A stretch of DNA of 64,000 nucleotides from an uncultured delta proteobacterium (GCA_963752035.1 CAVVWZ010000098.1:8461-72460); one strand, 5' to 3'. Positions 1,790-50,182 are shown, counted from the stretch's first letter. Translations and numbers: made by a program. The notes: generated by a model not told the origin, from the letters alone.

Positions 1790-3580
1790 ATGCGCTTATT
1801 ACAATCGATAGTTATTTCACTGACATTCATTATTTACAATTATCCCTACCTGTCACGGGGATTCTTTAAACCTGGAATGGAATCCCAATGGTGAAGGGGA
1901 CCTTGACAGGATACTACGTGTACTACGGCACTTCCCCCGGTTCCTATGGCGATCCTATCGATGTGGAAAATGTGACAGAATACGAACTTACAGGCTTAGA
2001 TCAAGGGGTACGATATTACGTAGCTATTACAGCCTACGACACTTCTGATAATGAAAGTGAAAAATCCGATGAAGAAAGTGGAGTACCTCCTGACACCCAG
2101 AACCCTTCAGTCACTATCACCATTCCAACGGCATCATCAAACTATTCTACCTCTAACAGCACCATCACCCTGGGTGGTACAGCTTCAGACAACGTAGGAG
2201 TAACAGTGGTGAGCTGGGTTAATAATAGAGGGGGTTCAGGTTCCGCATCTGGAACCACCAATTGGTCCATCTCCGGCATCAATCTGCAGTCGGGTAATAA
2301 TACCATCACGGTTACCGGGCGTGATGCTGCTGACAACACTGGGACTGACAGCATAACAATTAATTATACTCCTCTTACAACAACTACTACTAGCGTACTT
2401 TCTACAACCACAACCTCCGTGGCATCAACAACCACTTCTGCACCCACAACCACGACTTCAGCGGTCTCTACAACTACAACTGTACCCACTACCACTACTT
2501 CCGTTGCCTCAACAACAACTACAGCAGCTGCTACTACTTCAACTTCCGCCCCTGCAACTACAACAACACCCGCTACCACTACCAGCATACCCGGAACTAC
2601 TACCATCCCCGTGGCAACAACCACCACGGTGCAACCGGGAGTCAACCCGGTGAGCGGTAACATTATTATAAATAACGGTGCCTCAGTGACCGATTCACCC
2701 GAGGTTACCTTAACCCTCTTCGCCACCGCCAATGATCCAGTGCCGGCAACTTCAAGCCCAATCCTCGCTGGAGAAGAACTTGGTTCAGACGCAGTAATGT
2801 CTATCAGCAACGACGGCACAACAATGGTCTCCCCTCGAACCATACAGGCAAACAAAACAGTGGACTCTGGAACCCGGGGACGGAACAAAAACGGTTTACG
2901 CCCAATTCAGCACAGGTGATGGCAGGTGGATGACCGAATCCGCACAAGCTCAAATAATCCTTGAAGGATCTCAAAGCACCTGTGCTGACCCGCAAAAGAT
3001 CCAGCCAGTTTCTGTAACAGCATCCAGTGCGTCGCCCCGTTACTCTGCGGATAACCTTATTGATGGTGACCCATCAACGGCATGGTCTTCCGTGATTTCA
3101 CTCTTCAAAAAAGATCAATACATCACTCTTGATTTTGGCACCACAAAGAAGATTAGCGGACTTACCATGTATGCCTCCCAGCTGTTTGGTGTAGACTTCT
3201 TTCCCACAAACTTTGCGATACAGGTAAGTCAGGATAACGCTACCTGGGTAGACATCAGCAGAGAGCAGGGTTATGTCTTTGGCCAATCCATCTCTTCCGG
3301 CAACTGGGAAACGAACGGTCTTGAGTCTCGATACATCAGAATCCATATTACCAAGTCAAAAACACTCTTTCTCTTATTCAAACTAGCCCAGATTGCCGAG
3401 ATAGAAGTGTACGGCTGCAATCCAACAGGAGAAATACCACTTCTTGCCGGGGAACAGTTATCTGGTGAAAGTAGTGAACAACACACAGTCAGCACTCAAA
3501 AGGTATCGAACAGGGAAACTGAAAACCGGAACATGGCTCTGAGCGCCCCTGGCAGGCCAGCAGTAACATTCTTAAAGTAA
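1790..3580 (+). pseudogene. Large secreted surface protein (FN3 domain, Thr-rich linker, F5/8 type C / discoidin-like C-terminus) interrupted by three +1 frame shifts
   Basis: ATG 1790 follows GGAG and opens a hydrophobic N-terminus (MRLLQSIVISLTFII). The FN3 sense runs across frames: ...SLNLEWNPNGEGDL | TGYYVYYGTSPGSY...YYVAITAYDTSDNES. ORF 1888..2919 joins ORF 2930..3580 through ...MSISNDGTT | WSPLEPYRQTKQWTLEPGDGTKTVYAQFSTGDGRWMTESAQ... Discoidin-like tail: DGDPSTAWSS...IAEIEVYG. One base must be skipped near 1847, 1905 and 2822. Confidence 0.6.
2376..2627 (+). repeat. Thr-rich low-complexity coding repeat (mucin-like linker) inside the surface-protein gene
   Basis: Translation is iterated TTTTS(V/A)xS units (TTTTSVLSTTTTSVASTTTSAPTTTTSAVSTTTTVPTTTTSVASTTTT...). 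The antisense poly-Val ORF 2364..2888 is a by-product. Confidence 0.8.
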
Positions 3581-3631
3581 TACACATCCGGAAATACTGA
3601 ACAATAACACTCTTTAGAGGATCACAAGAAC

Positions 3632-5080
3632 ATGAAAAACATAGTCAGACACCTATCACTCTGGAACAGTCTACGGGCCCTTGCATGTACTATCCTGCTT
3701 TATCTTGTTACGGTTCAGGTTAATGAGGCCTTATCATACTTTGATCAAGCAACTTACTTTAAGGAGCACAAGGCCCTTATATCGTGGGCACCCTCAAGGG
3801 GACCGGTAGACCACTACCTTATGGAAATTACCGACACACAGTTCTTCCCTAGTTCGGGACAGAAAAATGGCCTCACAAAGATATGCCAGAAAACCACACC
3901 ACTGCCGTTCTATCAACTCACCTGTGAACACAACCACTCCTATCAAGTACGGGTAAAAGCTGTTTCTCCTTCAGGAAACTCTTCACCTTATTCAGAAACA
4001 AGCATACTCTTTATGTGCGATCAGAAAAAACCGGAAATCCATCTTTCATCTCTTCCACTGTCACCAAATGTCCGATCTCCAATCTTTTCACTATCCGGGA
4101 GTTTCGATGAGTCCAATCTTGAAGCCATTACCATAAACGAGGTTGCGGCCACCATTAAGGCTGCTGAAAAACATTTTGAGTCCACTGTACAGCTTGCTCC
4201 GGGAGACAACCTGATAACTCTTAAGGCATGGGATCTGGCAGGCAACATCACTACAAGAAACCTGGCAATTGCCTATTCCCCTCTTTCCAGGAGTGACGAT
4301 AATCTGTCTCCTTTCGAAGTTGACTATAACAATGACGGTACAAAAGATCTATTGGTTGGCACAGAAGAAGGGCGGATTGCACTGTTCACCAACACAGGGA
4401 CAGATGCCGAACCGGTTTTTTCAGACTATGACTTCCTGACAGTTGATGGAAAAACAATTGATGTCGGCACCCATGCAGCACCCTTCATGGTTGATTATAA
4501 TAATGATGGCATACCTGATCTTTTGGCGGGTAACGGAGAGGGATCGCTTCTTTACTATGAAAACCGGGGAAGCACAACCCACTCTGCTTTTGAGCAACCC
4601 ACTGTCCTTAAGGATGCTCACGGTACTCGTCTTGCCGTAGACTCAAACTGCACACCCTGTATTGTCGATTGGGATGATGATAACAAGAAGGACATTCTTC
4701 TGGGCAGCGGCAATGGCGCGCTGGTGCTCTATCGCAACGAAGGAAGTGACAGTGAACCACTCTTTTCCCTACCCACTCAGATCGAGGTTGATGGTGCGGA
4801 AATCAAATTTACCAGCCAGGTCGTTCCCGTGGTTGGGGACTGGAATGATGACGGTGGAAAAGATCTGCTGGTGAGAAACCGGGAAGGACGGTGTTTTCTT
4901 TTCCTAAACGAAGTTGTACGTGGCGAACCCGATTTGTTCCGGGCTGAACAATTTCAGGTTGGGGATTCGAAGCCCACCTCATCCGGATTTCCTGTTCCCA
5001 TTCCCTTTTACTGGAACCAGTTTGGTGAAGAAAGCTACCTGGATGGATACAGCTACACTTCTCTGAATCATTCCCTCTAA
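3632..5080 (+). CDS. Exported FN3 plus FG-GAP/VCBS-repeat (beta-propeller type) surface protein
   Basis: N-terminal hydrophobic segment, an FN3-like region (YQVRVKAVSPSGNSSPYSE), then four or five FG-GAP-type repeats: DYNNDGTKDLLVGTEEGRIALFTN, DYNNDGIPDLLAGNGEGSLLYYEN, DWDDDNKKDILLGSGNGALVLYRN, DWNDDGGKDLLVRNREGRCFLFLN. Confidence 0.7.
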   Translation: MKNIVRHLSLWNSLRALACTILLYLVTVQVNEALSYFDQATYFKEHKALISWAPSRGPVDHYLMEITDTQFFPSSGQKNGLTKICQKTTPLPFYQLTCEHNHSYQVRVKAVSPSGNSSPYSETSILFMCDQKKPEIHLSSLPLSPNVRSPIFSLSGSFDESNLEAITINEVAATIKAAEKHFESTVQLAPGDNLITLKAWDLAGNITTRNLAIAYSPLSRSDDNLSPFEVDYNNDGTKDLLVGTEEGRIALFTNTGTDAEPVFSDYDFLTVDGKTIDVGTHAAPFMVDYNNDGIPDLLAGNGEGSLLYYENRGSTTHSAFEQPTVLKDAHGTRLAVDSNCTPCIVDWDDDNKKDILLGSGNGALVLYRNEGSDSEPLFSLPTQIEVDGAEIKFTSQVVPVVGDWNDDGGKDLLVRNREGRCFLFLNEVVRGEPDLFRAEQFQVGDSKPTSSGFPVPIPFYWNQFGEESYLDGYSYTSLNHSL

Positions 5081-5104
5081 CACAATGAAGGACAACCAAA
5101 GAAC

Positions 5105-5615
5105 ATGAGTCAAGGAGGTTTTAAAGTAATGAAAAAAGAGTTGGAGATTGCTGTACTAAACGGTAACAATTCCAGTCAGGCAAGCAAAAACCTTTACCAG
5201 CGGCACAACAGAGAAGGTATTCCTTACATTGAAGTACGTAAAGGGAAAAACCTACGGAGAGATATGGTTCGAAACCCCTCACAATATACCGTTTAATCCT
5301 AAACCGGTATTTCATCTAAAAGAATGGTATGAATCATACTGGTTGAAGAGAAGGGGATACAAGGGCCTTCACCCCTACAGATTAAGTATCGGGCCGACTG
5401 CCATATGGTTTAAATTTACCCTTAACGACTTTGATCTGATCAAAAAACAGTTAACCAAGCTGACATGGAAACAATCCGCCCAAAAGAGTAAAAAACGTCT
5501 TTCTCTCAAAGCAGCTTCTGACAAGCTCTTCTGGGAATATGCTGATCAATATTTCGAAAAAAGCAGAATGGCAAATCGTAAGATAGGGCAAAAGGTTAGG
5601 CTCGCAGGCTGGTAA
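5105..5615 (+). pseudogene. Hypothetical protein, apparently split by a +1 shift in an A5 run
   Basis: ORF 5105..5296 and ORF 5229..5615 (TTG start only, no SD) overlap. Skipping one A in the run 5246-5250 joins ...IEVRKGK | TYGEIWFETPHNIPF... No family recognised. Confidence 0.3.
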
Positions 5616-5672
5616 CGGCAGAAAGGTATTTTCCGGGAAATGGCACTATTTTATTGTTAAGGGAAAAAGGAA

Positions 5673-5951
5673 ATGGAATTTACACAGAGCACTCTACTTG
5701 AAATCCCTCTATGGCACATAGAGCTCATGATGGCGATGATGATCCTCTGCCTTGCACTGAGACGATACGTGCTGGGATTACTGGGAGCAATTCTATTCAT
5801 CATGTACTGGGGATATATTTGGAACCTGGATAAATTCATCAATCAGCCATTGGAATTCAATTACATGACCGTCTGCTTTATACTCACGGCCGGAATAACT
5901 GCCCTCCTGGTTGTGGTCTTAGCAGTGCATTCTTTTTCCCTAAAAGAATGA
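5673..5951 (+). CDS. Small integral membrane protein, hypothetical
   Basis: 92-aa ORF with hydrophobic helices (LMMAMMILCLAL, LLGAILFIMYWGYIW, FILTAGITALLVVVLAV). No family recognised. Confidence 0.4.
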   Translation: MEFTQSTLLEIPLWHIELMMAMMILCLALRRYVLGLLGAILFIMYWGYIWNLDKFINQPLEFNYMTVCFILTAGITALLVVVLAVHSFSLKE

Positions 5952-5978
5952 TTCCAAGCAGGCACTACCTGAGGATCA

Positions 5979-7449
5979 TTACAGTCGCAGATCATATTCA
6001 CTGATCAGCCGGGAAAGGTAGGTTCTCTGAATTCCCATAACTTCAGCAGCCTTTTTCCTGTTGCCGTGGGTATAGGCCAATGTCTTCTTCAAAAATTCCT
6101 TTTTGAATAAATCCTGAGCATCTTTTAAGGTCATTCCCACCTCAACACCTCCCTGGAAACCGGGATCGGATTTGCCAATAGGAAGATCACTCGTCATGAT
6201 TTTAATTCCATCTCCCATCACGACGGCTCGCTCAATTGCATTCTCCAGTTCACGCACATTCCCCGGCCAGTCATAACTGAGAATGGCCTTCATGGCTTCA
6301 GTGGAAAACTCTGTTTTCCGCATACCCCTTTCAGCGTTAAACTTGGTAAGAAAGTATTCTGCCAATACACGCATATCCTCCCGCCGTTCCCGGAGGGGCG
6401 GGACCTTTAATTGAATTACATTGAGCCTGTAGAAGAGATCTTCTCTAAAGTGGCCATCCTTTGTCATAGTCTTTAAATGTCTATTGGTAGCAGATATGAC
6501 CCTAACATCCACCGTTATGGGAACAGAACTGCCGATACGGTTAAAGGTGCCTTCCTGCAATACCCGTAACAGCTTTACCTGCATGCTTTGACTCATTTCA
6601 CCTATCTCATCAAGAAATATTGTACCGCCATCGGCTGTCTCAAATAAACCGATCTTTTTATACAGTGCCCCCGTAAATGATCCTTTCTCGTGCCCAAAAA
6701 GTTCTGCTTCCAAAAGTGTTTCAGGCAGGGCTCCGCAATTGACAATAACGAACGGTTTATCTCGTCGCAATCCGGACCGGTGAATGAGTCTGGCTAACAG
6801 CTCTTTTCCCGTACCGCTCTCGCCTTCAATCAATACAGTTGTTTTAGAATTAGCTACCTTAAGTGCATCAGCAATGACCTGTTTTATTGCCTTACTCTCT
6901 CCCACGATGTGATATCTCATCTCCAACTGATTTTTCAGATCTTCATTCTCTTCAAAAAGCTTTTTATATTCTTGAGCTTTAACAATGGCTGATGCAGCTA
7001 AGTTCGCGAAAGACAACGAGTATTTCCATGTCTTCATTTCTTATAGCCTTACCATCCTCCCGATCAATGATTTCAACCACTCCTATGACGTCCTCCCCTA
7101 TCTTCATTGGCACACATGCAATGGAGGTGGTATCAAAACCGATTGATTCACTAATTTTCTTGTCCCACAGAGGATCTTTGGTCACATCTTCCACCAGGAG
7201 GGGTTTTCCTGTTTTTGCCACATATCCAGCAATGCCTTCCCCGAGACCTACCTCAAATTTTTTAACATCATCTTTCTTGTCACCAGTAGCTACTTGAAAA
7301 TAAAGTTTTTTCGTCTTTTCATCCAGCAGCAGCAATGAACTTGCACGAGCCTTCATCACCTCAGTAATTGACTCTATAATTAATCCTAAAAGATGTTCGA
7401 GATCAAAAACCGAAGTTACCAGAGATGAGATGTTGGAAAAAAATTGCAA
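5979..7449 (-). pseudogene. Sigma-54-dependent transcriptional activator (GAF sensor, AAA+ domain, Fis-type HTH) with one +1 frame shift
   Basis: GAF ORF 6979..7449 overlaps AAA+/HTH ORF 5979..7037. The sense joins as ...NEDMEIL | SLSFANLAASAIVKAQEY when one base near 7017 is skipped. Walker A GESGTGKE, GAFTGA-type loop GSFTGA, Walker B FLDEIGE, C-terminal HTH AAEVMGIQRTYLSRLI. Confidence 0.8.
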
Positions 7450-7550
7450 TCTTGGATCCTGACACTTTATCTTGTTCTTTCATAGACAACCTCAATTGAG
7501 TGAAACAGACACACCCCCTGAAACAATATATGGACATATATCTGAAGCTA

Positions 7551-7635
7551 TGTGCTGCTCCCCGCGCACCCCAGTTACATGAGCTCTGCATTTAACCGGG
7601 CAGGCAGCGCGGGGTTTGCTCAGCACCTGCCGGCC
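7551..7635. repeat. Intergenic direct repeat, copy 1 (~85 nt)
   Basis: tgtgctgctccccgcgcaccccagttacatgagctctgcatttaaccgggcagg...tttgctcagcacctgccggcc aligns with 7761-7840. The first 50 nt align column by column with 8 mismatches, then a 5-nt indel, then an identical ttgctcagcacctgccgg. Confidence 0.8.
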
Positions 7636-7760
7636 AGCACTATGCTGCCGTACCGCTGTCAATGAGTTATTATATAGTGCACTTATTGTTATCGACATTC
7701 CTCGAGAAATTCTTTAATTATTTACAAAATGTGCACTTTATGTAACCCCTGTTCTGTATA

Positions 7761-7840
7761 AGTGATGCTACCCACGCACCCTAGTTACATAAGCTGTGCA
7801 TTTAACCGGCCAGGCGTGGCTTGCTCAGCACCTGCCGGTC
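7761..7840. repeat. Intergenic direct repeat, copy 2 (~80 nt)
   Basis: agtgatgctacccacgcaccctagttacataagctgtgcatttaaccggccaggcgtggcttgctcagcacctgccggtc, lying 210 nt downstream of copy 1. Confidence 0.8.
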
Positions 7841-8000
7841 GATTTCAGACTCTTTTCCACTAAAGTTGTAGAAAAAGGCACCGATACTAATAAATAGAGT
7901 TCAGTGGTTACAAATCACCAGAAATCAAACAGATTGTTTTAAGCAACTGACATCTCTGAACTCACACATAATGCCAACCATTTCTAACGACTAACTACCC

Positions 8001-9098
8001 ATGGAACTCTCTGAACTTCTAAAAAACATGACAGAAAAAGGTGCATCTGATTTGCATCTGCGCCCTATGACAAAACCAATTATACGGGTTGATGGTAACC
8101 TGGTCAGCACCGACTATGAGCCGGTCACCATAGAAGAAATTGAGGCTATGGCTGACAGTATCATGAACGAGTACTTAAAAAAGAAATTCCTGCTAAAACA
8201 TTCTGTTGACACATCTCACTCTGTTCCAGGAGTAGGCAGATTCAGGGTAAACATTTTTCAACAGAGAGGTACAACTTCCCTTGTTTTAAGGAATATTCCT
8301 TTCAAGGTGCCGACTACCGAATCACTCAATTTACCCCCGGTTGTTAAATCATTTTGTTCAAAGCCACAAGGGCTGTTAATCGTAACCGGGCCAACCGGCT
8401 CGGGTAAATCTTCAACGCTTGCTTCCATGGTTGAAGTTATTAACGAAAAAAGAAACCTGCACATCATCACTATAGAAGACCCCATTGAATATCTCTTTAA
8501 AAACAAAAACTGCATTATCACCCAACGGGAAATTGGTATCGACACCCCCAATTTTGCCCACGCACTCAAGGATGCCCTTCGGCAGGACCCTGATGTAATT
8601 CTCATCGGTGAAATGAGAGATATCGAAACGACGACCATTGCAATGAATGCCGCGGAAACCGGCCATCTTATATTGAGCACGATGCACGCAAACAACACGT
8701 ACGAAGCAGTCTCACGTATCATTGATATCTTTCCCAAAGACCAGCAAAATCAGATAAAAATCCAACTTTCTAATGTACTTCTGGGGGCAATCTCCCAGAG
8801 GCTTATAAACAGGGTGGACGGAGCCGGCAGAATTCCTGCAATAGAAATTCTCATCGGCACTCCAGCAGTCAGAAAAATGATCCTCCACAACCAGTACAAA
8901 GACATACTGGAACAGATCGAGAAATCTGTAGTGCACTATGGCATGCAATCCCTGGAACAATCACTGCTTGCTTTGCTGGCAAACAAAATGATTAACTTAG
9001 ACGAGGCAAGAAGTACTACATTACGCCAGGGAGAATTTGATCTGATGAGAGAACAACTCGGTATTGGTGAGTTGGGAGGGTTTAACTTTACAAACTAG
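8001..9098 (+). CDS. pilT: Type IV pilus retraction (twitching motility) ATPase PilT
   Basis: 365 aa. Walker A GPTGSGKSST, Asp/His-box region ILIGEMRD...STMHANN, full-length PilT-type secretion ATPase pattern. Confidence 0.9.
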   Translation: MELSELLKNMTEKGASDLHLRPMTKPIIRVDGNLVSTDYEPVTIEEIEAMADSIMNEYLKKKFLLKHSVDTSHSVPGVGRFRVNIFQQRGTTSLVLRNIPFKVPTTESLNLPPVVKSFCSKPQGLLIVTGPTGSGKSSTLASMVEVINEKRNLHIITIEDPIEYLFKNKNCIITQREIGIDTPNFAHALKDALRQDPDVILIGEMRDIETTTIAMNAAETGHLILSTMHANNTYEAVSRIIDIFPKDQQNQIKIQLSNVLLGAISQRLINRVDGAGRIPAIEILIGTPAVRKMILHNQYKDILEQIEKSVVHYGMQSLEQSLLALLANKMINLDEARSTTLRQGEFDLMREQLGIGELGGFNFTN

Positions 9099-9134
9099 GA
9101 ATAACAGGTAATCACTTTTCGCGGGAGCATCATT

Positions 9135-9482
9135 ATGACTCAAGAATCGTATGCTGATTTTTCAATCATTCAGAAGTATCTTGATCAAAAAAAATATCAC
9201 GATGAAGCATTAAAAAACTATGATGCTAAAATAGCAGAGCTGGAAAGTGCTCTTACTGTCCTGAAGGATGAGATGAGTGCAAAAGACGACGTAATTAGCC
9301 AGCTGCAGGGTCACGTGGAAGAAAAAGAGATGCTCATTAAGGAACGGGAAAAAAGCTTGCAGGAACTCAACATTCAACTTCACCGGATCAAGCAACAAAT
9401 GGATCCTGTGCAACAACAGCAGGGGTCACAGGTTTTTGAGGATGCTGGATCTAAAAAAGCAAAATTCGGTTTTTTAAAATAG
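9135..9482 (+). CDS. Coiled-coil protein, hypothetical
   Basis: 115 aa, starts 36 nt after pilT. Heptad-rich Glu/Lys/Leu sequence (AELESALTVLKDEMSAKDDVISQLQGHVEEKEMLIKEREKSLQELNIQLHRIKQQ). Confidence 0.5.
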   Translation: MTQESYADFSIIQKYLDQKKYHDEALKNYDAKIAELESALTVLKDEMSAKDDVISQLQGHVEEKEMLIKEREKSLQELNIQLHRIKQQMDPVQQQQGSQVFEDAGSKKAKFGFLK

Positions 9483-9485
9483 ACA

Positions 9486-9507
9486 GGGACATCACACAGT
9501 GATGCCC
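9486..9507. terminator. Hairpin between convergent genes, possible terminator
   Basis: ggg(a)catcac-aca-gtgatgccc: 9-bp stem with one bulge. On the minus strand it is followed by tctatttt. Confidence 0.35.
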
Positions 9508-9522
9508 GTCAAACCTTCAGGC

Positions 9523-10488
9523 CTACAAACCTTCTTTTACCAACTCTCCTAACAGTTCTCTTTGCTTTTTATCCAAGTGCGTAGGGACTGCAACAATTAT
9601 CCGCAAATATAAATTTCCCTTCCCTTTACCTTTGAAATGGGGGAGACCATAACCCTTCAATCTAATTTTGCTGTGGCTCTGGGTTCCAGCCGGAACACGG
9701 ACCTTTCGTATCCCGTCAAAGGTGGTCACCTCAACAGTTGAACCAAGAGCTGCCTGGGTAAAGGATAGTTCTTTATCCAGCAGGAGATCACTGCCCTCTC
9801 TGGTAAAAACAGGGTGCTTTGTTACGGCAATTCTAATATACAGATCGCCGGAAGGCCCTCCGGAGCCCCCCTGTTGTCCCCTGCCGGGAATTCTCAACTT
9901 TTTGCCAGCACTGATTCCCGGGGGTATTTTCACATTCACCTTAGAGAGGGTTCCATCTTCCTTGCGAAAGGCAACCTGCTTGGAAGTACCAGAAGCAACC
10001 TCCTCAAGAGTAATAGAAAGATCATATACTAAGTCAGCACCCTTCTGAGCAGTTGTGTGATGCCCACGGCCAGTTCTCTGGAAATCACCGGTGCCGGTCT
10101 GTGAGTAGGCATTGAAAAAATCCTTAAAGTTTACTCTATTGGAAGTTCGCCTGCCGCCACCGAAGAGCGTGCTGAAAACATCATCACTGCCAACGCCCGA
10201 ATCCTTGAATAAATCACCGATATCAAAACCCTTAAAAATATCCTCCTGGGAATACCTCCTGTGAAAACCGGAATATCCAACAGCATCATATTCCTGCCGC
10301 TTCTTCTTATCGCTTAACACCGCGTAAGCTTCACTAACTCCCTTGAATTTTTCCTCAGCCGATTTATTCCCCTGATTTCTGTCGGGGTGATATTCCATAG
10401 CAAGCTTCCGATATGCTTTTTTGATTTCTGCTTCCGAAGCCCCCTTTTTTAAACCTAACACAGCATAGTAATCTTTTTTAGTAGCCAT
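9523..10488 (-). CDS. J-domain co-chaperone, CbpA/DnaJ class II-like (no zinc-finger region)
   Basis: J domain [35 protein letters not shown]-like region, DnaJ C-terminal beta domains. No CxxCxGxG repeats. Confidence 0.85.
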
Positions 10489-10498
10489 ATCCCCTCAT

Positions 10499-12244
10499 TC
10501 AATTTCCGTATGATTCTCTGATAAGTTTTTCCAAATATCCCTCGGGGTCCTTTATCGACTCCCCAGACAGCACAAAATCATGATTACCATTTTTCTCCCT
10601 TATGAGATTAAGCCCATGATTATAGCTTTTAAACATGCTGCCACAGAGCACTTCTACCGGAGTTTCCTCTTGTAGAGCCTTCTCGAGGAGCTGCTTGACG
10701 GCGGATTCTTCAAAAGTGATAGTAATACCACTGTCCTCACAAAATGACTGCTCGTAGTACTCAATATCGGCAACCAGCGCACATAGCTCTTCCAGTACTA
10801 CTGTCAGTTCCATGCCCGCATCAACGGCTCTGTTTACCGCAAGATGGATACAGGACTCAGTCAGCAATGCCCGGGAGTGTGCAGGCAGGCTCAGTATGTT
10901 TTCTGCAATTGATGCCCTTAACTGCTCTTTCTCATGCTCAATTGCACTACGGTAACGCTCCCTTTGATCCCTTGTCTCACCGTTTTCCAACAGCAGGTTT
11001 AGCTCTCTTTCCGGGTAGTTAACAATGTCGCTTGTTACCACTAACCTTTTACAGGAGGTTGAGGGAAGTTTCTTTTCGAATTTCATTAACACCTTTTCAA
11101 CTTCGCTCACCAGTCCACGGGCCCCGGTATTATGTTTGTGTGCTTTCTCCGCAATATGATAGAGGGCATCATCCTCAAAGAGCAGATCTATCCCATAAGC
11201 CTTAAAATCCTGTTTTTTGCTATTGACAACAACACCATTAGGGTTCTTGAGTATCTGGTACAAATCATCGACTGTTAGTGAATCAAATACCGTCATAACA
11301 GGCAATCTTCCAATAAATTCTGACTCAAAACCATAATGAATTAAATCTTCAGCAGTTACTCTCTTCAAACAGTCGGTCTCATCATCTCCGGACCTCTCTT
11401 CTGTCTGAAAGCCAATGCCGTGATCGTTGATCCTTCTGTATATAATGTCGGCTAAACCATTAAAGGCACCACTGACAATAAATAATATATCCCCCGTATT
11501 GACTGTTCTCTTCTCTTTTTTCCCTGTTTTACGGAATTGTTCCATTGCTTCCATTTGTGAAACAATATCATGAGGCACTTTTAGATCAACCTCAGTCTCC
11601 TCCATTGGCTTAAGCAGTCCCCGTTGCACCCCGGTACGGGAAACATCGACCCCAACAATATTGTTGCCCGAGGCGATTTTATCTATTTCATCAATATAAA
11701 TAATGCCCTGCTGTGCACGCTCAATATCGCCATCCGCCTCTTGCACAAGGTCCCTTACCAGATCCTCTACATCTCCTCCCACATATCCGGTTTCACTAAA
11801 CTTTGTTGCATCACCTTTTACAAAGGGGACACCCAGCTTTTGAGCTATGAGTTTAATCAGATAGGTTTTCCCTACCCCGGTAGGGCCAATCATGATAATA
11901 TTGCTTTTAATCATCCCAACCCTATCTTTGCCTCCATGCTTCCGGCAGGATTCCCGATAGGCGATTCTCTTAAAATGAGTACAAACCTTGGTAGCAAGAA
12001 CCTCTTTGGCGTCCTCCTGTTTAATCACAAATTTATTCAGGTATGCCTCTAATTCCTCCGGTTTTAAATCGAATGACACCTTTTTTGACGTCTTATCTTC
12101 CCGTGATTCTTTATCTATGAGGCCTTCATCCTTTTGAGGAATGACCATCGGTGTGGCCAATCGAACACGATCACCATATTTTTTGGTGAGGTAGTCATTG
12201 AGTTCCTTCTCTAATTCCTTAGGATCAGGCAATTTCCCATCCAT
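10499..12244 (-). CDS. ClpX/HslU-family AAA+ ATPase lacking the N-terminal zinc finger, with a long C-terminal extension
   Basis: 581 aa. LNKFVIKQEDAKEVLA..., Walker A GPTGVGKTYL, GDATKFSETGYVGGDVE, Walker B IIYIDEIDKI, ClpX-like small domain (GARGLVSEVEKVL), then about 150 extra residues. Ends 10 nt before the J-protein gene. Confidence 0.75.
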   Translation of the reverse strand: MDGKLPDPKELEKELNDYLTKKYGDRVRLATPMVIPQKDEGLIDKESREDKTSKKVSFDLKPEELEAYLNKFVIKQEDAKEVLATKVCTHFKRIAYRESCRKHGGKDRVGMIKSNIIMIGPTGVGKTYLIKLIAQKLGVPFVKGDATKFSETGYVGGDVEDLVRDLVQEADGDIERAQQGIIYIDEIDKIASGNNIVGVDVSRTGVQRGLLKPMEETEVDLKVPHDIVSQMEAMEQFRKTGKKEKRTVNTGDILFIVSGAFNGLADIIYRRINDHGIGFQTEERSGDDETDCLKRVTAEDLIHYGFESEFIGRLPVMTVFDSLTVDDLYQILKNPNGVVVNSKKQDFKAYGIDLLFEDDALYHIAEKAHKHNTGARGLVSEVEKVLMKFEKKLPSTSCKRLVVTSDIVNYPERELNLLLENGETRDQRERYRSAIEHEKEQLRASIAENILSLPAHSRALLTESCIHLAVNRAVDAGMELTVVLEELCALVADIEYYEQSFCEDSGITITFEESAVKQLLEKALQEETPVEVLCGSMFKSYNHGLNLIREKNGNHDFVLSGESIKDPEGYLEKLIRESYGN

Positions 12245-12497
12245 AGTCGTCTTCTAGCACCTCTTTATAGTTTATTTATCTATATTTTATCACATTTTTA
12301 ATGCGCCTGCAAATCAATCCATCCATGTACTTCTCTGTTTTGTATTGACAAGACACCCCTGTTTATGCTTAAAATAGAAGGGTTTGTAGTTTTCGGCTCC
12401 TCATGTTGAGGATCACGCGACTTTTTGGTTTGCCTGTCAATAGGGCTCTGGTAGTCGCAGCACACTTATCACTGTTAATACAATAAAAGGAAGGTTA

Positions 12498-12617
12498 ATG
12501 GCGCGATCAAAGTTCAAGCATAAGAGGAAAAGACATAAGGCTAACTTACGACTCAAGAGAAGGCAAGAAAGGGAAAAGGAAGAAAAGAAAACAGGGGAAC
12601 AGGCAGAAGGCTCCTAG
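12498..12617 (+). CDS. Candidate 39-aa highly basic small protein
   Basis: Not in the ORF track (under 60 aa). ATG 12498 follows aaggaagg. Translation: MARSKFKHKRKRHKANLRLKRRQEREKEEKKTGEQAEGS. The stop abuts the convergent TPR gene stop. Confidence 0.25.
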   Translation: MARSKFKHKRKRHKANLRLKRRQEREKEEKKTGEQAEGS

Positions 12618-13337
12618 TCAGTTGTTAAGGGAGGCAGCCTTGTCCTCGGCCAAAGCAATGAAAGGTGAGTTATTTCCATCACCACCTGCTTTCTTATAAT
12701 ACTCGAGAGCAGAAGTACTGTCTTTCAGGGTCTCATAACATCGTGCTATATTAAGGTAAAGCAGGTTTTCAATGGCACAATTAGGTTGGTTCAGGGACTG
12801 CTTGAAATAGTCAAGTGCTTTTTCGTGGTCCCCTTTTTCTTCATAACAGTATCCCAGGCCCTCAAAAGCAAACTGCCTTAAGTAGTTATCCTTTTGCGAT
12901 GTATTTATAAAACTCATATAATTTTCGATTGCTTTATCATAGTCTTTCAAGTGGTAATAGCAGTCCCCTATGTACAGCAAAGACTTGGTAGCTGATGTAG
13001 CATTTGAGTAATTCGCTACAACTTCTTCGAACTTTTCTAATGCTGGACGGTAAAGAGGTGTTTGTGGCTGGTCATTAGTTTGAGCAGCTGTACTCTTTTG
13101 GTAGATCTGCTTGGCCTGAGTAAAGAGACCTAAAGCCTCCTGTTCCCGCTCCCTGCTGTAGTAGTAAAACCCAAATATAATGAAGGCAACAACCAGTACA
13201 ATGGCCGCTGCGCTGCCAATCATCACATAATTATTTTTAACATAATCCAGCACAACGCTTGATGTAGATATGAATTCATCAGGCTCTGTTGCCTTTTGTT
13301 TCACAACTTTTATCTTTCTCGGCATAGATTTCCTCAC
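12618..13337 (-). CDS. Membrane-anchored tetratricopeptide-repeat protein (YfgM-like layout)
   Basis: N-terminal TM helix (IGSAAAIVLVVAFIIFGFYYY) followed by TPR units (YIGDCYYHLKDYDKAIENY, GLGYCYEEKGDHEKALDYF, NIARCYETLKDSTSALEYY). Confidence 0.7.
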   Translation of the reverse strand: MRKSMPRKIKVVKQKATEPDEFISTSSVVLDYVKNNYVMIGSAAAIVLVVAFIIFGFYYYSREREQEALGLFTQAKQIYQKSTAAQTNDQPQTPLYRPALEKFEEVVANYSNATSATKSLLYIGDCYYHLKDYDKAIENYMSFINTSQKDNYLRQFAFEGLGYCYEEKGDHEKALDYFKQSLNQPNCAIENLLYLNIARCYETLKDSTSALEYYKKAGGDGNNSPFIALAEDKAASLNN

Positions 13338-13477
13338 AGTATAGCTTTAATATGTACTTGGTGAATAAAACTGCTCCTGTTTGATGATCTTCTCGCAAGT
13401 CTACACAGTGACCTCTCTTTTGTCAACCATTTGTTGCGAAAGACCTTTTAGAATAACCCAAGCTCAATTACCCTATA

Positions 13478-14353
13478 ATGGAAACAAGAAAGTTCATTGA
13501 CGCCCATGTTCATGGTTTCATTAAGCCAGCCGATAAAAACCATTTCAAAAAAAACATACACGCACTTTTAGGCCACGGACTTGAAAAAATCATAATTGCA
13601 GCACTTCCCTATCATGATTTTGACTATCAGCTAAAATTAAGTTTAGCGCCCCCCCACATCCAGCCTTTTATCAGTAAAGACAATTTTGATGAAACACGTC
13701 TGCTGGCTGACTGGACCGAGGAGTACAGGTTACAAAAAATTGTGGTCCCTTTTATTGACGTCCGGTTCGTGACGGACAATATCCGGGGGACAATACTGAA
13801 TGCTATACAATCAGGTTGCAGGGGTATTAAAGGCGCTTTCATCCCTGAATCTGACCGCATACTCACTATCCAGGGAATTCCACAAGCATTAGGCCTTTCT
13901 GCCGAACGTTACTGCTCGATTCAGGAGGAGATTTTCACCGTTGCCCATGACCTCAACCTTCCTCTTCTCTACCATATTAATCTCTCCCAGCATTTTGACT
14001 GGATAGGTGTTCTCCTTAAAAAATTTCCTCTCTTAAGGATTAGCATTCCCCATCTGGGCTACAGCCTAAGGAGGATTTCGGATATGCTGGATCGTTTTGA
14101 AAACACCTACACTGATCCTTCCTACCTCATTGACATCCTTAATAAGAACAATAAGCGTTATCTTGCCTTTATTGACAGGTACCATACAAAAATACTGTCG
14201 GGTTCTGATGCCATTATTGCTAATGGAATTGATGCTATTCTTCCCTATCCACGCTATTTCTCCCATCTCTCAGTGCCGGACACTGTAAAAGAAAGGATTC
14301 TGAGAAAGAATGCCTGCACCTTCCTCGCTCTTCCAGAGGGGGAAATCGAGTAA
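13478..14353 (+). CDS. Amidohydrolase-family metal-dependent hydrolase (TIM barrel)
   Basis: N-terminal IDAHVHGF metal-ligand motif, late GSDA motif, about 290 aa. Consistent with the amidohydrolase-2 family. Confidence 0.6.
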   Translation: METRKFIDAHVHGFIKPADKNHFKKNIHALLGHGLEKIIIAALPYHDFDYQLKLSLAPPHIQPFISKDNFDETRLLADWTEEYRLQKIVVPFIDVRFVTDNIRGTILNAIQSGCRGIKGAFIPESDRILTIQGIPQALGLSAERYCSIQEEIFTVAHDLNLPLLYHINLSQHFDWIGVLLKKFPLLRISIPHLGYSLRRISDMLDRFENTYTDPSYLIDILNKNNKRYLAFIDRYHTKILSGSDAIIANGIDAILPYPRYFSHLSVPDTVKERILRKNACTFLALPEGEIE

Positions 14354-14524
14354 TTTCTATTCACCAGGGTAGTAGGATCACCATCAGGCATCTTGCGTGG
14401 TTCAAAAACAGGGGGAGTGATATGCGAGGTCATTTCTCTGGACAAAAACGATACGCACACGGTCTGCACTAACAAGGAGAACAGAGTAACATTGTACTCT
14501 TGAGGGCTTCGTTTGAGGGAGGTT

Positions 14525-16123
14525 TTAGCGACCTTTGTCTCGAGAGAGCTTATAATTGATACTGTCTACCAGGGCCTGCCAGCTTGCTTCGATGATGTTT
14601 TCAGATACACCTACAGTTCCCCACTTATTTATTTTGTCACCGGTTTCCACCAGCACCCGTACCTTTGACCCTGTTCCTTCCCCTGAAGAAAGAACCCGAA
14701 CTTTATAGTCAATGAGCGTAGTTTCTTTGAGCCGGGGATAAAATTTTTCCAGGGATTTTCGCAGGGCATTATCAAGGGCATTAACCGGTCCATTGCCCAA
14801 AGCAGCGGTATGTTCCGTCTTACCCTCAACAGTGACCATAATTGTTGCTTCACAAATAGGGGATTCCCCTTCCCTTCTCTCATTGATAACTCTGAAGCCA
14901 ACCAGCTCAAAGTATGTTTGCTTAGTCCCCAGTGCTTCCATCATCATGAGTTCAAAAGAAGCTTCGGCTCCTTCGAATTGAAATCCTTCACTCTCCAGGT
15001 GCTTTAAGCGCTCAACAATCTCATGGACTGCTGGATCATCACTCGAAAGATTGATTTTAAACTCCTGTGCCTTCTGCAATATATTACTTCTGCCTGCCAG
15101 TTCAGAAATTAAAACCCTCTGGACATTGCCCACCAGACCAGGGGCAATATGTTCGTAGGTTTCAGGCTTTTTACGAATGGCACTAACGTGCACCCCCCCC
15201 TTGTGTGCAAAGGCACTGCTACCAACGTAGGGCTGATGCTTGCGTGGCTGCAAATTAGCAAGTTCATAAACAAACCGGGAAACTTCCTGCAGCTTAGCCA
15301 GCTGGAGATTGGTAACACAGTTGTAGTTGAGCTTCAGGGTGAGATTGGGAATAATCGAACAGAGGTTGGCATTCCCGCACCGCTCACCAATCCCATTAAT
15401 AGTGCCCTGAACCTGACTCATTCCAAGCTGGACTGCTATGAGACTATTGGCAACAGCCACCTCAGAATCATTGTGGGTATGAATACCCAAAGAGGTTCCG
15501 GGCACCTGTTTTTTCACCTCCTCAATAATCTCGCGCAATTGATGAGGGAGGGTTCCTCCGTTGGTGTCACATAAGATAATACAGTCTGCACCTGACTCTG
15601 CTGCAGCTTTAACCGTCTGGATTGCGTAGCGGGGATTAGCTCTAAACCCATCGAAAAAGTGCTCTGCATCATAAAAAATTTCGGCAAACTTAGGTTTGAG
15701 AAACTTGATGGTATCAGCAATAAGCTTTACATTCTCAGAAAGCTTGATACGGAGGGCTGCTCTCACATGCACGTCCCAGCTTTTGCCAAAGATGGTTACC
15801 ACTCCGGTTTTGGCTTCGATGAGGGATTTCAGGTTACTGTCCTTTTCAGGAGCAGAACCAGCTTTTGCGGTACTTCCAAAAGCCACGATCTGAGCGTGTT
15901 TCAGTGGAACGCTCTTTATTTCACTGAAGAAGCGTATATCTTTAGGATTCGACCCTGGCCATCCCCCTTCAATATAATCAATACCAAGCTCATCAATCTT
16001 CTGTGCTATCCTCAATTTATCTTCTACGGAGAAAGAAATATCCTCTGCCTGGGAACCATCCCGCAAAGTTGTGTCGTAGAGCGTTACTGTGGGGGTAAGC
16101 TGATTCTGTTTTTTTTCCACCAT
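14525..16123 (-). CDS. cimA: Citramalate synthase-type member of the 2-isopropylmalate synthase (LeuA) family
   Basis: [34 protein letters not shown]-terminal LeuA allosteric/dimerisation domain. I place the start at ATG 16123 (MVEKKQ...), 4 nt after the lysC stop. The track ORF start at 16204 would overlap lysC. Confidence 0.75.
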
Positions 16124-16127
16124 ATCC

Positions 16128-40322: not shown

Positions 40323-41283
40323 TCAATCCATTACTGTATCCGTTATTACAAACCACCAAAGGGAACGGGAATAAAGGTTACGATAAATATAAAAAGCATT
40401 ATACCACCTATCACCTTTCTCTTCACTATCGAGGGGACTATCAAAGTCCACAGGTGGGGGATGCTTTGTCCCTAAAAAAACCAGAAGGATCAGTGCCCAA
40501 AATAACCAGATGCGATGAACCCCAGACACCTAAGCCCAGCATGGCAATCAAAACAGCACTGGAAATAATTTTTGTTTTTCTGCCAAACACTGCATAGGCA
40601 ATGTGCCCTCCATCCAACTGCCCAACAGGAATAAGATTCAAAGATGTTACCAGCAGTCCAATCCAACCAGCAAAACCGAGAGGATGGACAATAACCTGGT
40701 AATTTTCGGGAAGATTACCAAAAATCATCCAGGTCAAAAATTCCAGCAAAAGAGAGGTTCCCAGGGTAAATCCTTCTTCGAGAGAGGCTTCAACCACGTG
40801 CACCTCAGAAAGTTTTAGACCTATAATTAAAATAGGGATTGTAACAATCAATCCTGCCAGTGGTCCGGCAGCACCGACATCAAACAGCGCCTTTTTATTT
40901 GTCACCGGTGTACGCATCTTAATAATTGCACCAAAAGTGCCTATGAATGTTGGCGCAGGAATGAAATAGGGCAAGGTTGCCTCGATATGGTACCGTTTAG
41001 ATACGAAGTAGTGACCCATCTCATGGGACAAGAGGATAAAGATAAGGGCAAAAGAAAAAGGAACACCTGTTACTATCTGTTCAGGGTGTTCCAGGGGATT
41101 AACCCCCAGTTGCAGTGCACCTGCTAGAATTGTTGTCCCGATGGTCAGGATGAAAAGAACTATGTTCACCGCGATTGAAGGCTTTTTACGGGAGGATATG
41201 GCACACCTGTCATGTTCACTGCAAGGGGATAGTTCAGAAGAACAGGGAACAGCCACCTTCTCGCAGAAATTGTCTCTATCCAT
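40323..41283 (-). pseudogene. M50-family (site-2 protease type) membrane metalloprotease with one +1 frame shift
   Basis: HEMGHYFVSK zinc motif and multiple TM helices. The family-typical C-terminus (IWLFWALILLVFLGTKHPPPVDFDSPLD...) lies in ORF 40323..40529, reached by skipping one base near 40512. Confidence 0.7.
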
Positions 41284-42089: not shown

Positions 42090-42108
42090 CCCCGCCCACA
42101 GGGCGGGG
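42090..42108 (-). terminator. GC-rich hairpin downstream of the IHF/HU-family gene
   Basis: ccccgccc-aca-gggcgggg: 8-bp stem. The T tract begins only about 10 nt later on the minus strand. Confidence 0.35.
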
Positions 42109-42178
42109 CTTGGGAGGCATAACCTGGTCAAAACGATAGAGGCAGGAACATTTTTGTCAAATGTGTAGGCCTGACCTC

Positions 42179-42460
42179 CTATTCAACATTTACCCTGTTT
42201 TTTAATTCTTTTCCCACTTTAAAGAAAGGTTTTTTGCGGGGTGGAACCGTCACTCGTTCACCGGTTTTGGGGTTTCTCCCCTCACGGGCTTCGTAGTGAC
42301 GAACACTAAAACTGCCAAATCCTCTAATTTCTATACTCTCCCCTTTACCTAATGCCTCAGTCATGGAATCAAAAATATTATTGACCACTAACTGAGCTAT
42401 ATCATGATTCATCTTGAGGTCTTTGGCAATCTTTTCTACGAGGTCAGACTTTAACATCAC
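42179..42460 (-). CDS. IHF/HU-family DNA-binding protein, IHF beta-like
   Basis: IEIRGFGSFSVRHYEAREGRNPKTGERVTVPPRKKPFFKVGKELKNRVN closely follows the IHF-beta arm pattern. Confidence 0.85.
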   Translation of the reverse strand: MMLKSDLVEKIAKDLKMNHDIAQLVVNNIFDSMTEALGKGESIEIRGFGSFSVRHYEAREGRNPKTGERVTVPPRKKPFFKVGKELKNRVNVE

Positions 42461-46236: not shown

Positions 46237-46237
46237 C

Positions 46238-47573: not shown

Positions 47574-47608
47574 GAACATCGAACGTCTAACATCGAATTT
47601 TGAATGAA
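47574..47608. repeat. Heptanucleotide tandem array, module A, second locus
   Basis: gaacatc/gaacgtc/taacatc/gaatttt/gaatgaa. Confidence 0.85.
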
Positions 47609-47660
47609 AAACAAAGCAGGTATTTAATTGAGAGTTCTACGTTGGAGAAGATTTAAAACA

Positions 47661-47797
47661 CCGCAGAGACGCAAAGAGCGCAAAGAAAACCTAATGAAGA
47701 TAAATTAACCAGCAAAAAATACAGGAATAAGTTTGATGCAAGTATAAAGAATGAGTTTTTTCTATTTTAATTCTCTGCGTACTTTGCGTCTTTGCGG
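47661..47797. repeat. Imperfect 25-nt inverted repeat pair
   Basis: ccgcagagacgcaaagagcgcaaag (47661-47685) versus the reverse complement of ctctgcgtactttgcgtctttgcgg (47773-47797): 21 of 25 positions match. Confidence 0.7.
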
Positions 47798-47882
47798 TTA
47801 GAAATAAGTTTGGATTTGTTGCGGATTGATCCCTGCGGGAAGCTCCTCAGCTGCTTAGTGCTTCGGAGTTGTATTTGATGAT

Positions 47883-47931: not shown

Positions 47932-47941
47932 AGGAGGATAA

Positions 47942-48718: not shown

Positions 48719-48797
48719 ATTACCCCCCGAGCAACAACTTCTTTTGTTTTACCCGGAAGGGGATAAAAAGGAAGCACCAAAGTGGAGGGGAAGCAGG

Positions 48798-50182
48798 TTA
48801 CTCTGGTTTTTGAAAGAGGGCACCTACATTATGAGCCCAAAAGAGGCCCAGAGGAGTAAGGGTAAAAGCATCCTGGTTGTCTTCAATAAGACCGTTCTGA
48901 ATTAAAAATGTCAGAACAGACTTGAATGTTTCGTTGATATCAATATTGTAGTGTTCGCTCAATCTCTTTGTATCCACCTTTTTACCAAACAGGATCTCTT
49001 CCGAAATACCCCAGGCAACACTAAAAGATCTGCTAAATAATCCTGCTGCAATTGCAGGAAACTCGTCTGCTTCAACGATCTGATTGTAATACTCCACGTG
49101 GGGCATGTTAAAATAGATTAAGGAACCTAAATTACCAACCGCTCCCGGTCCCAACGGAGATACAGTCCCCCTCCTGAAACCGGTGTCTGAAGTAACGGAT
49201 ACGCTCCCTGTCTGACCGGGTAAAGAAACAAAAATTCATTTGGTGAAATCCGTTTTTGGGGAGTATATCAAGAACCGCACTGTAAAACTCATACTGCTTT
49301 TTCTCATCTCCCATCTCCTGGAATTTCACCCTGCTCAATCATCTTTGACAACAAAGAATCCTTTAACGGGAACCAGATGGATGTATGCTGACCGTTTGAA
49401 CCCCGGACGTTACAGCAGTTTGCAGGTCATCTTCCCATTCCTGAAGAGTCTGGGTTGGGATATTATAAACCAGGTCAATGTTGACAAGCCCGATACTTTT
49501 CTCATGCCAGTTCAATCTTCTGAAGCACATCATCCGGATGACACTCTCTGCCAATCAGTTTTCGCAACCGGGGAGAAAAAGTTTGGACACCAAGGCTCAT
49601 TCTGTTCACCCCGCCGCACTTCAGGGCTGCCAGCATATCTTCGGTGATGTTGGCAAAGCTGGATTCGCTGGTGAATTCCACATCATCGGCAAAACGGAGG
49701 TTTTCCCGGATGGTGTTCATGAGACTCTGCATCTGACCAGGTGTCATGGTGGTGGGAGTTCCCCCTCCGAAATAAAAGGCATCAAAAGGAACTGAGTGGA
49801 GATAGGGGTAGTCACCAAACCGCCGAATGGTCTCACAGAGCACCTCAAGATAGCGGTCAAGGGCATCCTCATCCTTGAGCACTCTGAAAAATGAACAAAA
49901 CTTACAGAGCTTTTCACAAAAGGGGTGATGGATATAACCCACCCGATCACCCGGGATTGTTCTTTCATGGGTAAGTACTTCGTGTGCCTTGCTTTGAATA
50001 TCGGGGTAAGATAGGGTGGATGCAGCAAGTTGTTCAGCTACTGCATGATGGCTTATCCGCTGGGGAAATATCTCGTAGGGCTTCACCATTTCTTTGTTAT
50101 CATCTCTGAATGGCTTGCCCATCAGTTCTGATACTCTCCCCTCAGGAAAGAGAAGTATGATGCGAGGAACATTGTCGGACAT
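48798..50182 (-). pseudogene. HemN/HemW-like radical SAM enzyme broken into four ORF fragments
   Basis: Radical SAM cluster motif HPFCEKLCKFCSFF, GGGTPT, RMSLGVQTF. The sense continues KIEL | HEKSIGLVNIDLVYNIP...VSIH | PLKDSLLSKMIEQGEIPGDG | DEKKQYEFYSAVLDILPKNGFHQMNF...CISVG | PGAVGNLGS... Shifts near 49507 (+1), 49365-49385 (-1), 49309 (+1) and 49149 (+1). Confidence 0.7.

Follow-up and report, generated by a model that had tools for sequence, protein, structure and literature searches.

Several genes in the window (the whole 64-kb stretch of DNA analysed here) are interrupted by single-base frame shifts beside long genes that are open throughout, which raises the question of whether they are broken in the organism, are decoded in an unusual way, or are intact and wrongly assembled. 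Breaks were called by six-frame tracing, which delimited stop-bounded shift zones, and then by nucleotide alignment to relatives. Outside a high-GC patch, 20 frame breaks were found in eight genes, and all 20 were +1, each being mended by taking out one base (two-sided binomial P = 2e-6). With a UDP-glucose dehydrogenase-family gene inside the patch, the affected genes numbered nine (Table 1), not the ten or more of the original prediction. Every break listed there was recovered by the tracing and the shift zones. Its +1 bias was also borne out, but not its count of 16 in 17: the bias was absolute outside the patch, whereas the patch held three –1 events and one +2 event. The –1 event proposed near 49375 in the HemN-like gene was in fact two +1 events, at 49365 and 49378, as judged from the gapless ortholog alignment after five removals. 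Three breaks were real but lay elsewhere than first placed: the phosphofructokinase (PFK) break moved from about 28712 to 28713–28717, that of the hypothetical gene from the A5 run at 5246–5250 to the G run at 5243–5245, and the first NlpC-like break, by alignment to the relatives L001 and L002, from 34157–34161 to 34144. Two breaks were new, at 40425 in the M50 protease gene and at 7469–7473, close to where the sigma-54 activator gene begins. For the latter gene, an extra base in the T7 run at 7443 was ruled out by alignment to relatives. The genes that had been called intact were intact, and were of the same length as those of relatives where relatives were fetched (pilT, 365 aa; ClpX-like, 581 aa; lysC, 409 aa; clp, 757 aa; one ABC gene, 565 aa). 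Exact-sequence look-ups with two intact proteins of the window, DnaK and a 482-aa FG-GAP protein, gave no match in public collections.

Table 1. Genes and intergenic sites with extra or missing bases in the window, with codon pairs readable at the sites in brackets
Feature	Position	Strand	Length once repaired (aa)	Events and sites	Assemblies lacking the extra bases	dN/dS, repaired
Surface protein (FN3-like N-terminus, Thr-rich linker, F5/8 type C domain)	1790–3580	+	595	three extra bases: near 1855–1858, 1896–1899, 2822–2823		
Hypothetical gene	5105–5615	+	169	one extra G: run 5243–5245 (GGG/GGA)	L004, L005, L006	0.21
Intergenic extra G	5661–5663	.		one extra G	L004, L005, L006	
GAF / sigma-54 activator	5979–7483	–	500	two extra bases: 7015–7016 (GTT/GTG), 7469–7473 (CAA/CAG)	L004, L005, L006	0.066
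Intergenic extra C, 6 nt upstream of pilT start codon	7995	.		one extra C	L004, L005, L006	
Fused tandem PFK, Cys-rich C-terminus	27791–30143	+	783	one extra base: 28713–28717 (CAC/CAT)	L011, L002	0.05–0.17
UDP-glucose/GDP-mannose dehydrogenase-family gene, in high-GC patch	31082–32763	+		seven frame-changing indels: –1 at 31455, 31517, 31718; +1 at 31481, 31859, 31899; +2 at 31823		
NlpC/P60-like secreted protein	33992–34920	+	308	two extra bases: 34144 (GGC/GGA), 34628 (AAT/AAA)	L001, L002	0.40
Serpin	35134–36358	+	406	four extra bases: 35146 (CTA/CTC), 35255 (GGG/GGA), 35700–35702 (GCC/GCA), 35839–35841	L001, L002	0.22
M50 (site-2) metalloprotease	40344–41283	–	311	two extra bases: 40513 (TCG/TCC), 40425	L001, L003	0.125
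HemN-like radical SAM enzyme	48796–50089	–	428	five extra bases: 49504 region, 49378 (CCA/CCT), 49365 (AAA/AAG), 49319 (CCA/CCG), 49155–49159 (TCC/TCG)	L003	0.092

Deletion of one base at each of the 20 sites gave proteins of ortholog length, with no gaps at the mended junctions against orthologs or solved structures. The repaired serpin gave one Pfam Serpin match over profile positions 2–370 of 370, aligned over its full length with intact proteins of 406–408 aa (84% identity), and matched PDB 8gxv continuously, gapless at the three junctions covered. Among species-representative genomes it had only distant relatives (≤63% identity), which carry the labels uncultured delta proteobacterium or Desulfobacteraceae. 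Repaired PFK was matched twice by Pfam PFK, and the gene is a single ORF of 790–793 aa in L008, L009 and L010. The sigma-54 activator showed Pfam matches to GAF, Sigma54_activat and HTH_8, and its ortholog P0203 is an intact 500-aa protein at 97% identity. The HemN-like protein was gapless against the intact 428-aa orthologs P0121–P0126, with SIHPLVPVKDSLLSKM invariant. Intact genes were also found for the hypothetical protein in L004 (169 aa), for the NlpC-like protein, which had no Pfam match, in L001 and L002 (309 and 312 aa), and for the M50 protease in L001 (300 aa). The M50 gene of L003 has a single-base deletion of its own elsewhere, at about window position 40736. The surface protein, with a Pfam F5_F8_type_C match, was matched in a single frame by tblastn to the JGI relatives L019–L023; its residues 1–98 were gapless over the first two junctions, and residues 286–595 spanned the third with no gap there. 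No close relative was found for this gene, and its three sites were placed by frame tracing, as ranges; as placed, they lengthen short runs of an identical base.

Comparison with independent assemblies or a close strain, the check named with the original prediction, found the extra bases missing in every assembly fetched: five sites were covered by L004–L006 and 14 further sites by L001, L002, L003 or L011, and at the three surface-protein sites the protein matches to relatives stayed in one frame throughout. L004, L005 and L006 represent one strain at 97% identity, recovered identically in JGI 3300037489, SRR12660003 and SRR14998420. It lacked the extra base at 5243, 5661, 7015, 7469 and 7995; it is another strain than that of the window, and strain-specific mutations remain compatible with this lack. 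Two intergenic single-base deletions relative to this strain were also seen, at 7519 and 12484, and the extra G at 5661 shares the local motif AAGG[G]AAAAA with the 5243 site, where the window has G3 and relatives have G2.

Related species at 80–92% identity lacked the extra bases in the PFK, NlpC-like, serpin, M50 and HemN-like genes. The alignment of the HemN-like gene with L003 contained exactly five window-specific single-base gaps, and over the 14 kb aligned with L003 there was no coding single-base indel besides these five. At the PFK site, L011 (JGI, 90.7% identity) showed a single gap and one ORF through the site. An extra base was also present in L001 within 4 nt of this site, but a real feature common to both was rejected: the two extra bases differ and lie 4 nt from each other, and a single ORF of 783–793 aa spans the site in L011, L002 and more distant relatives. 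The extra bases of the window and of L001 are here tentatively attributed to two independent errors. L001–L003 belong to one ENA assembly and carry private single-base indels of their own in other genes; false frameshifts are therefore common in assemblies of this lineage.

For the gene in the high-GC patch, a three-way alignment of the window with L001 and L002 placed all seven indels, three +1, one +2 and three –1, within 450 bp (31455–31899). With the intact 559-aa protein of L001 as tblastn query, frame switches were observed in the window. The GC content of the patch was 0.65, compared with 0.49–0.54 in L001.

The sites were not evenly spread. Eleven of the 19 gaps between neighbouring sites were shorter than 500 bp against 2.8 expected, a number reached in none of 200,000 simulations (P < 5e-6), and up to five breaks fell inside 350 bp of one gene. 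A raised mismatch density in the clusters, looked for as a sign of low-quality stretches, was not found. About 12 of 19 extra bases had no identical adjoining base, and no run of identical bases at a resolved site exceeded three (range 1–3 nt).

Purifying selection on the repaired frames is strong and undiminished (dN/dS 0.05–0.40, Table 1). Values for intact neighbours were 0.02–0.30, a range that held all repaired genes except the NlpC-like one. The picture was unchanged when only the part of each gene beyond its first extra base was considered, and the repaired frames contained no in-frame stops.

At 17 of the 20 resolved +1 sites, the sequence could be read as a pair of adjacent codons, different but synonymous, with the extra base at the wobble position. 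The chance rate of such a reading was 45%, as obtained from 25,352 simulated random insertions put through the same procedure (P = 3e-4, or P = 2e-3 with the patch left out). Three sites did not fit this reading: 34628, the 49504 region and 40425. For several sites, each of the two alleles is found among relatives; at 35255, GGG is found in L001 and GGA in L002, and at 34144, GGA in L001 and GGC in L002. In the patch, the three +1 sites were each readable as a synonymous pair, and each of the three –1 sites was compatible with a missing wobble base. These pairs point to a mixture of strains whose consensus retained the two alleles of a SNP.

The extra bases are almost certainly assembly-consensus errors, not gene decay or unusual decoding, and they probably arose from the collapse of closely related strains. 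The contig would have been assembled from reads of at least two such strains, and at some strain SNPs the consensus would have written both alleles in succession, for a net gain of one base; sometimes, in the divergent high-GC patch, neither allele would have been written, leaving a –1. The strains were presumably collapsed into one sequence over stretches of about 0.1–3 kb, with the errors confined there. Collapse limited to such short stretches would explain multi-hit genes beside unhit long neighbours, and the false insertions would fall at wobble positions because natural genic SNPs concentrate at synonymous third codon positions. Against this, the substitution density in the clusters was not raised, as might be expected of a two-strain mosaic. 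Consensus error had been one of the two explanations in the original prediction, and it is favoured by the absence of the extra bases from other assemblies, by purifying selection and by the wobble pairs; the description of the affected loci as specifically accessory was wrong, since they include PFK, the sigma-54 activator, the M50 protease and the HemN-like radical SAM enzyme. A comparable case is the mosaic assembly of Trypanosoma brucei, in which collapsed haplotypes led to consensus artefacts (PMC8445201). There, too, apparent frameshifts appear where alleles merge and are uneven along the sequence, which fits the side-by-side synonymous alleles seen here. Unlike in that diploid eukaryote, for which phasing and read-level proof exist, the mixture of strains in the reads is here suggested by the sequence pattern; the assembler or sequencing platform behind the errors is likewise an inference.

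A less likely possibility, still to be taken seriously, is that the artefact came from plain sequencing noise, with strain polymorphism playing no part. The clusters would then be stretches with thin coverage or without polishing, made of error-prone single-molecule reads or of read ends of low quality, whose random single-base insertions outlasted the consensus step. The patchy, insertion-only events without added substitutions agree with such noise, as do the many extra bases without an identical neighbour, unlike homopolymer-length miscalls; absence from independent assemblies and selection on the repaired frames fit it equally well. Whether errors in PacBio assemblies are insertions or deletions is reported to depend on GC content (PMC8574707), and here, among genic events, deletions occurred only in the 65% GC patch. 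However, random insertions predict about 45% synonymous pairs, far from what was seen, and the residual errors reported for long-read assemblies, mostly homopolymer-associated and in nanopore mostly deletions (PMC12007338, PMC8574707), do not match the window. More generally, long-read and collapsed-haplotype assemblies yield apparent frameshifts and false pseudogenes (PMC12007338, PMC8445201, PMC8574707), and the false frameshifts that indel errors create in long-read or hybrid assemblies are handled by Kastor, proovframe and IDEEL-type checks (PMC12007338, PMC9262707). The window resembles such assemblies in that single-base indels, several per gene, fragment genes with intact orthologs, that fixing them restores ortholog length, and that L001–L003 show the same damage at other places. 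It differs from them in that its events outside the patch are all insertions, mostly without an identical neighbour, and are wobble-enriched.

It is improbable that genuine, very recent insertions inactivated nine genes in this strain. The extra bases do stand in the sequence as given, and the sole same-species comparator is another strain, 3% divergent. But bacterial indel spectra are deletion-biased, whereas 20 of 20 events outside the patch were single-base insertions, and most inserted bases were not slippage-type duplications; to our knowledge, the observed indel spectrum is unlike any known mutational spectrum. Up to five events occurred in 350 bp, yet dN/dS was 0.07–0.4 with no stop in the repaired frame. 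The synonymous-pair pattern at wobble positions has no mutational explanation, and central genes, including PFK and the sigma-54 activator, are affected. Genuine pseudogene build-up is known from Mycobacterium leprae and Sodalis during genome reduction, and real bacterial pseudogenes are deletion-biased, evolve under relaxed selection, contain in-frame stops and are shared by related strains. The window is similar in having many frameshifted genes beside intact neighbours but has none of these traits, and the insertion-biased pseudogenisation offered in the original prediction finds no support, the last three of them being absent.

Recoding, whether by +1 shifting of the ribosome, by quadruplet decoding or by removal of the extra base from the transcript, is scarcely credible: the uniform +1 direction and the purifying selection on repaired frames, as expressed recoded genes would show, agree with it, but no site was conserved in any relative examined, no common motif or codon was visible in the ±12-nt contexts of all 20 sites, the old-frame stop lay 17–176 nt downstream of the last new-frame stop (the shift zone) and generally not at the shift site, the runs of at most three bases at resolved sites are too short for transcriptional slippage (rescue by which needs a long A or T run of about 9 nt or more), no tRNA genes were found in the 64-kb window, where nothing thus bears on quadruplet decoding, and extra bases also occurred in intergenic DNA (5661, 7995). 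Programmed +1 frameshifting of the prfB/RF2 type and the genome-wide +1 shifts of Euplotes likewise require one base to be skipped for the gene to be read. Such sites are conserved in orthologs and marked by a defined motif, the shift taking place at a stop or hungry codon, unlike the sites of the window, which are private to one assembly, motif-less and partly outside genes. It is very improbable that the extra bases are real in any form, which would call either for a mutational burst without precedent, made up of insertions only and falling at wobble positions, or for a free-living bacterium in which +1 recoding is widespread.

In the organism itself, the affected genes are almost certainly intact. 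As assembled, the window would have about one in six of its genes miscalled as pseudogenes or broken into fragments, among them those for PFK, the sigma-54 regulator, the serpin, the M50 protease and the HemN-like enzyme. Any metabolic reconstruction, count of pseudogenes or estimate of completeness drawn from this genome would be distorted. Synonymous alleles standing side by side at wobble positions offer a simple diagnostic that needs only the sequence, by which consensus errors from mixed strains could be picked out in other assemblies for which no reads are to hand.

The reading frames were traced over each region named in the original prediction, and each shift was bounded by the closest stop codons of the old and new frames. 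All of the listed breaks were found in the window, and deletion of one base per junction restored uninterrupted frames. Outside the high-GC patch, a stretch of frame-changing indels in a UDP-glucose/GDP-mannose dehydrogenase-family gene, there were 20 events in eight genes, all of them +1 (two-sided binomial P = 2e-6), which upheld the claimed +1 bias (16 of 17 breaks) and revised the count. The sequence SIHPLVPVKDSLLSKM in the HemN-like protein, unchanged in 6/6 homologs, required two separate +1 corrections, so the single −1 event claimed for this gene was really two +1 events. With five bases deleted, and only then, this protein gave a gapless alignment to intact orthologs of 428 aa (76–91% identity). 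The repaired sigma-54 activator was exactly 500 aa, as were its intact ortholog P0203 (97% identity) and dozens more; this length required a further correction close to the start codon, which was missing from the original list. A second correction was also required in the M50 protease. Pfam supported the repairs wherever a domain spanned a junction: the repaired serpin gave a single Serpin match (profile positions 2–370 of 370), and the repaired regulator gave, in order, GAF, Sigma54_activat, AAA lid and HTH_8. At 406 aa, the repaired serpin also matched intact metagenome serpins (406–408 aa) over the full length at up to 84% identity, and the solved serpin 8gxv in one unbroken match, gapless at the three covered junctions.

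Related species were represented by L001, L002 and L003, three contigs of ENA ERZ25039514 with 80–92% identity, colinear with the window from 25 to 60 kb. Both NlpC-like and all four serpin extra bases had no counterpart in L001 and L002, nor had both M50 extra bases in L001 and L003, or all five HemN-like extra bases in L003. Over the 14 kb aligned with L003, the only coding single-base indels were these five. For PFK, the sole gap between the window and L011 (JGI, 90.7% identity) lay at the predicted junction, and L011 read through. No close relative of the surface protein was found when one was sought; the JGI relatives L019–L023 gave a single-frame match to the repaired protein over all three junctions. 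The other genes of L001, L002 and L003 carried private single-base indels: 16 insertions and 16 deletions were counted within 11 kb of L002, the ABC-transporter genes of L001 were fragmented and the M50 gene of L003 was split. False frameshifts are thus frequent in this lineage's assemblies, and each assembly has them at different places. Across the three contigs (contig_40578, contig_18511 and contig_204), private indels split tilS, PFK, ABC-transporter, UDP-glucose dehydrogenase and M50 genes.

The homolog-bearing contigs compared here were fetched and then aligned to the window at the nucleotide level. For the same species, L004 (JGI 3300037489) showed 97.3% identity to positions 4619–17216; L005 and L006, Logan assemblies of SRR12660003 and SRR14998420, were identical to L004 across the overlaps. 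The three contigs represent one strain from three datasets. It differs from the window by 3%, and its sequence was 100% identical over 2.7–2.9 kb in the three sources. All three had exactly one base fewer at each of 5243, 5661, 7015, 7469 and 7995. Their sigma-54 activator was intact, as was the hypothetical gene, at 169 aa in L004 and with a call of 161 aa in L005 and L006. Comparison with an independent assembly, suggested in the original prediction, therefore left the extra bases without counterpart, in L004–L006 and in the related-species contigs, at the compared sites.

Each extra base was placed by the deletion that minimised mismatches to the closest relative. Seven of the 19 placed bases added to one or two identical bases already there, about 12 had no identical neighbour, and none lay inside a run of more than three, a pattern that differs from the usual homopolymer-length error. 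No common motif was found in the ±12-nt contexts of the sites. The extra bases at 5243 (genic) and 5661 (intergenic) share the local motif AAGG[G]AAAAA. The sites were strongly clustered, with 11 of 19 inter-site gaps below 500 bp against 2.8 expected (0/200,000 simulations reached 11). The clusters, at 1.8–2.9, 5.2–8.0, 31.4–31.9, 34.1–35.9, 40.4–40.5 and 49.1–49.5 kb and about 6 kb in total, contained essentially every event that changes the frame, those in the high-GC patch included, and raised substitution density was not found in them.

At most sites the extra base lay at or beside the third codon position. The window showed the pattern NN[X][Y], in which NNX and NNY are two distinct codons of one amino acid, for example GGG/GGA, GTT/GTG, CAA/CAG, CAC/CAT, GGC/GGA, CTA/CTC, GCC/GCA, TCG/TCC, CCA/CCT, AAA/AAG, CCA/CCG and TCC/TCG. 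When 25,352 random insertions were simulated in the same genes, with the same relatives and the same minimum-mismatch procedure, two different synonymous codons were obtained in 45%. The observed sites gave 14/17 outside the patch (P = 2e-3) and 17/20 with the three patch insertions added (P = 3e-4), and each of the patch's three single-base deletions fitted the loss of a wobble base. Both alleles were present among relatives at several sites, such as 35255 (GGG in L001, GGA in L002). Natural SNPs are concentrated at synonymous third codon positions, so this signature would be explained most simply if, where co-assembled strains differ by a SNP, the consensus step had entered both alleles, giving +1, or occasionally neither. 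Such a consensus would also explain why the events are +1-biased, patchy, independent of homopolymers and free of extra substitutions. The main rival, likewise an artefact, is ordinary sequencing noise where coverage is thin or the sequence unpolished; it fits the patchy distribution and the excess of insertions but leaves the wobble enrichment unexplained. Gene-fragmenting indels are documented in long-read assemblies (PMC12007338, PMC9262707), PacBio indel type is reported to depend on GC content (PMC8574707), and collapsed alleles can give apparent frameshifts (PMC8445201).

The repaired frames were projected onto the nucleotide alignments and dN/dS was calculated by the Nei-Gojobori method (see table).

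Positions in the window and dN/dS values of the features discussed
Feature	Position	dN/dS
Surface protein, Thr-rich linker	2400–2700	
Hypothetical gene, repaired		0.21
Sigma-54 activator, repaired		0.066
57-nt direct repeat, two copies	7549–7605, 7759–7815	
PFK, repaired halves	27791–30143	0.05 and 0.17
Dehydrogenase-family gene	31082–32763	
Dehydrogenase-family gene, 5′ two-thirds	31250–32400	
Dehydrogenase-family gene, part overlapping the patch end	32000–32760	0.02
NlpC-like, repaired		0.40
Serpin, repaired		0.22
M50, repaired		0.125
Short intergenic stretches	42092–42182, 47574–47798	
HemN-like, repaired		0.092
Intact neighbours		0.02–0.30

Segments 3′ of the first extra base, which would be out of frame if that base were real, had equally low dN/dS, and no stops were found in their repaired frame. 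Neutral drift, as expected of genes with two to five genuine frameshifts, was seen in none. Genuine pseudogenisation, the second suggestion of the original prediction, was not supported: it is at odds with these selection data and with the insertion-only spectrum, the genes took several hits yet had no stops, and the extra bases were missing from all relatives. Recoding of the genes conflicts with the evidence, since the sites are not conserved, the runs are short, the shift sites have no shared motif and, in general, no stop, and intergenic DNA also has extra bases (5661, 7995). Taken with the relatives and the wobble signature, the selection data favour the first suggestion, consensus error tied to strain heterogeneity, in the sharper form of a probable both-allele consensus.

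Several loci were noted alongside. The 5′ two-thirds of the dehydrogenase-family gene had a GC content of 0.65 versus 0.49–0.54 in the orthologous L001 stretch, to which its identity fell to ~81%, and was the only place with single-base deletions; it resembles an allele acquired by recombination from a relative of higher GC, or a second haplotype. In the part overlapping the patch end, dS was ~0.88 versus ~0.3 in neighbouring genes. The PFK gene encodes 783 aa in which two PFK domains are fused in tandem and followed by a Cys-rich C-terminal tail (CHKCGH...CVYCEKPNC), a reading supported by more distant relatives in JGI metagenomes that have it as one ORF of 790–793 aa. This architecture is unusual among bacterial PFK. 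Between the sigma-54 activator and pilT, the intergenic DNA holds a 57-nt direct repeat whose copies are 86% identical. Other short intergenic stretches, one containing the palindrome CCCCGCCCACAGGGCGGGG, match non-orthologous intergenic places in L001, L002 and L003 and may be small dispersed repeat elements. In the related species (L019–L023), the surface protein's Thr-rich linker and middle domains were missing or differed strongly, and the called gene was only 287 aa; the locus is structurally variable.

The frame breaks are almost certainly an assembly artefact, of little biological interest, and serve as a practical caution for annotators of this genome.
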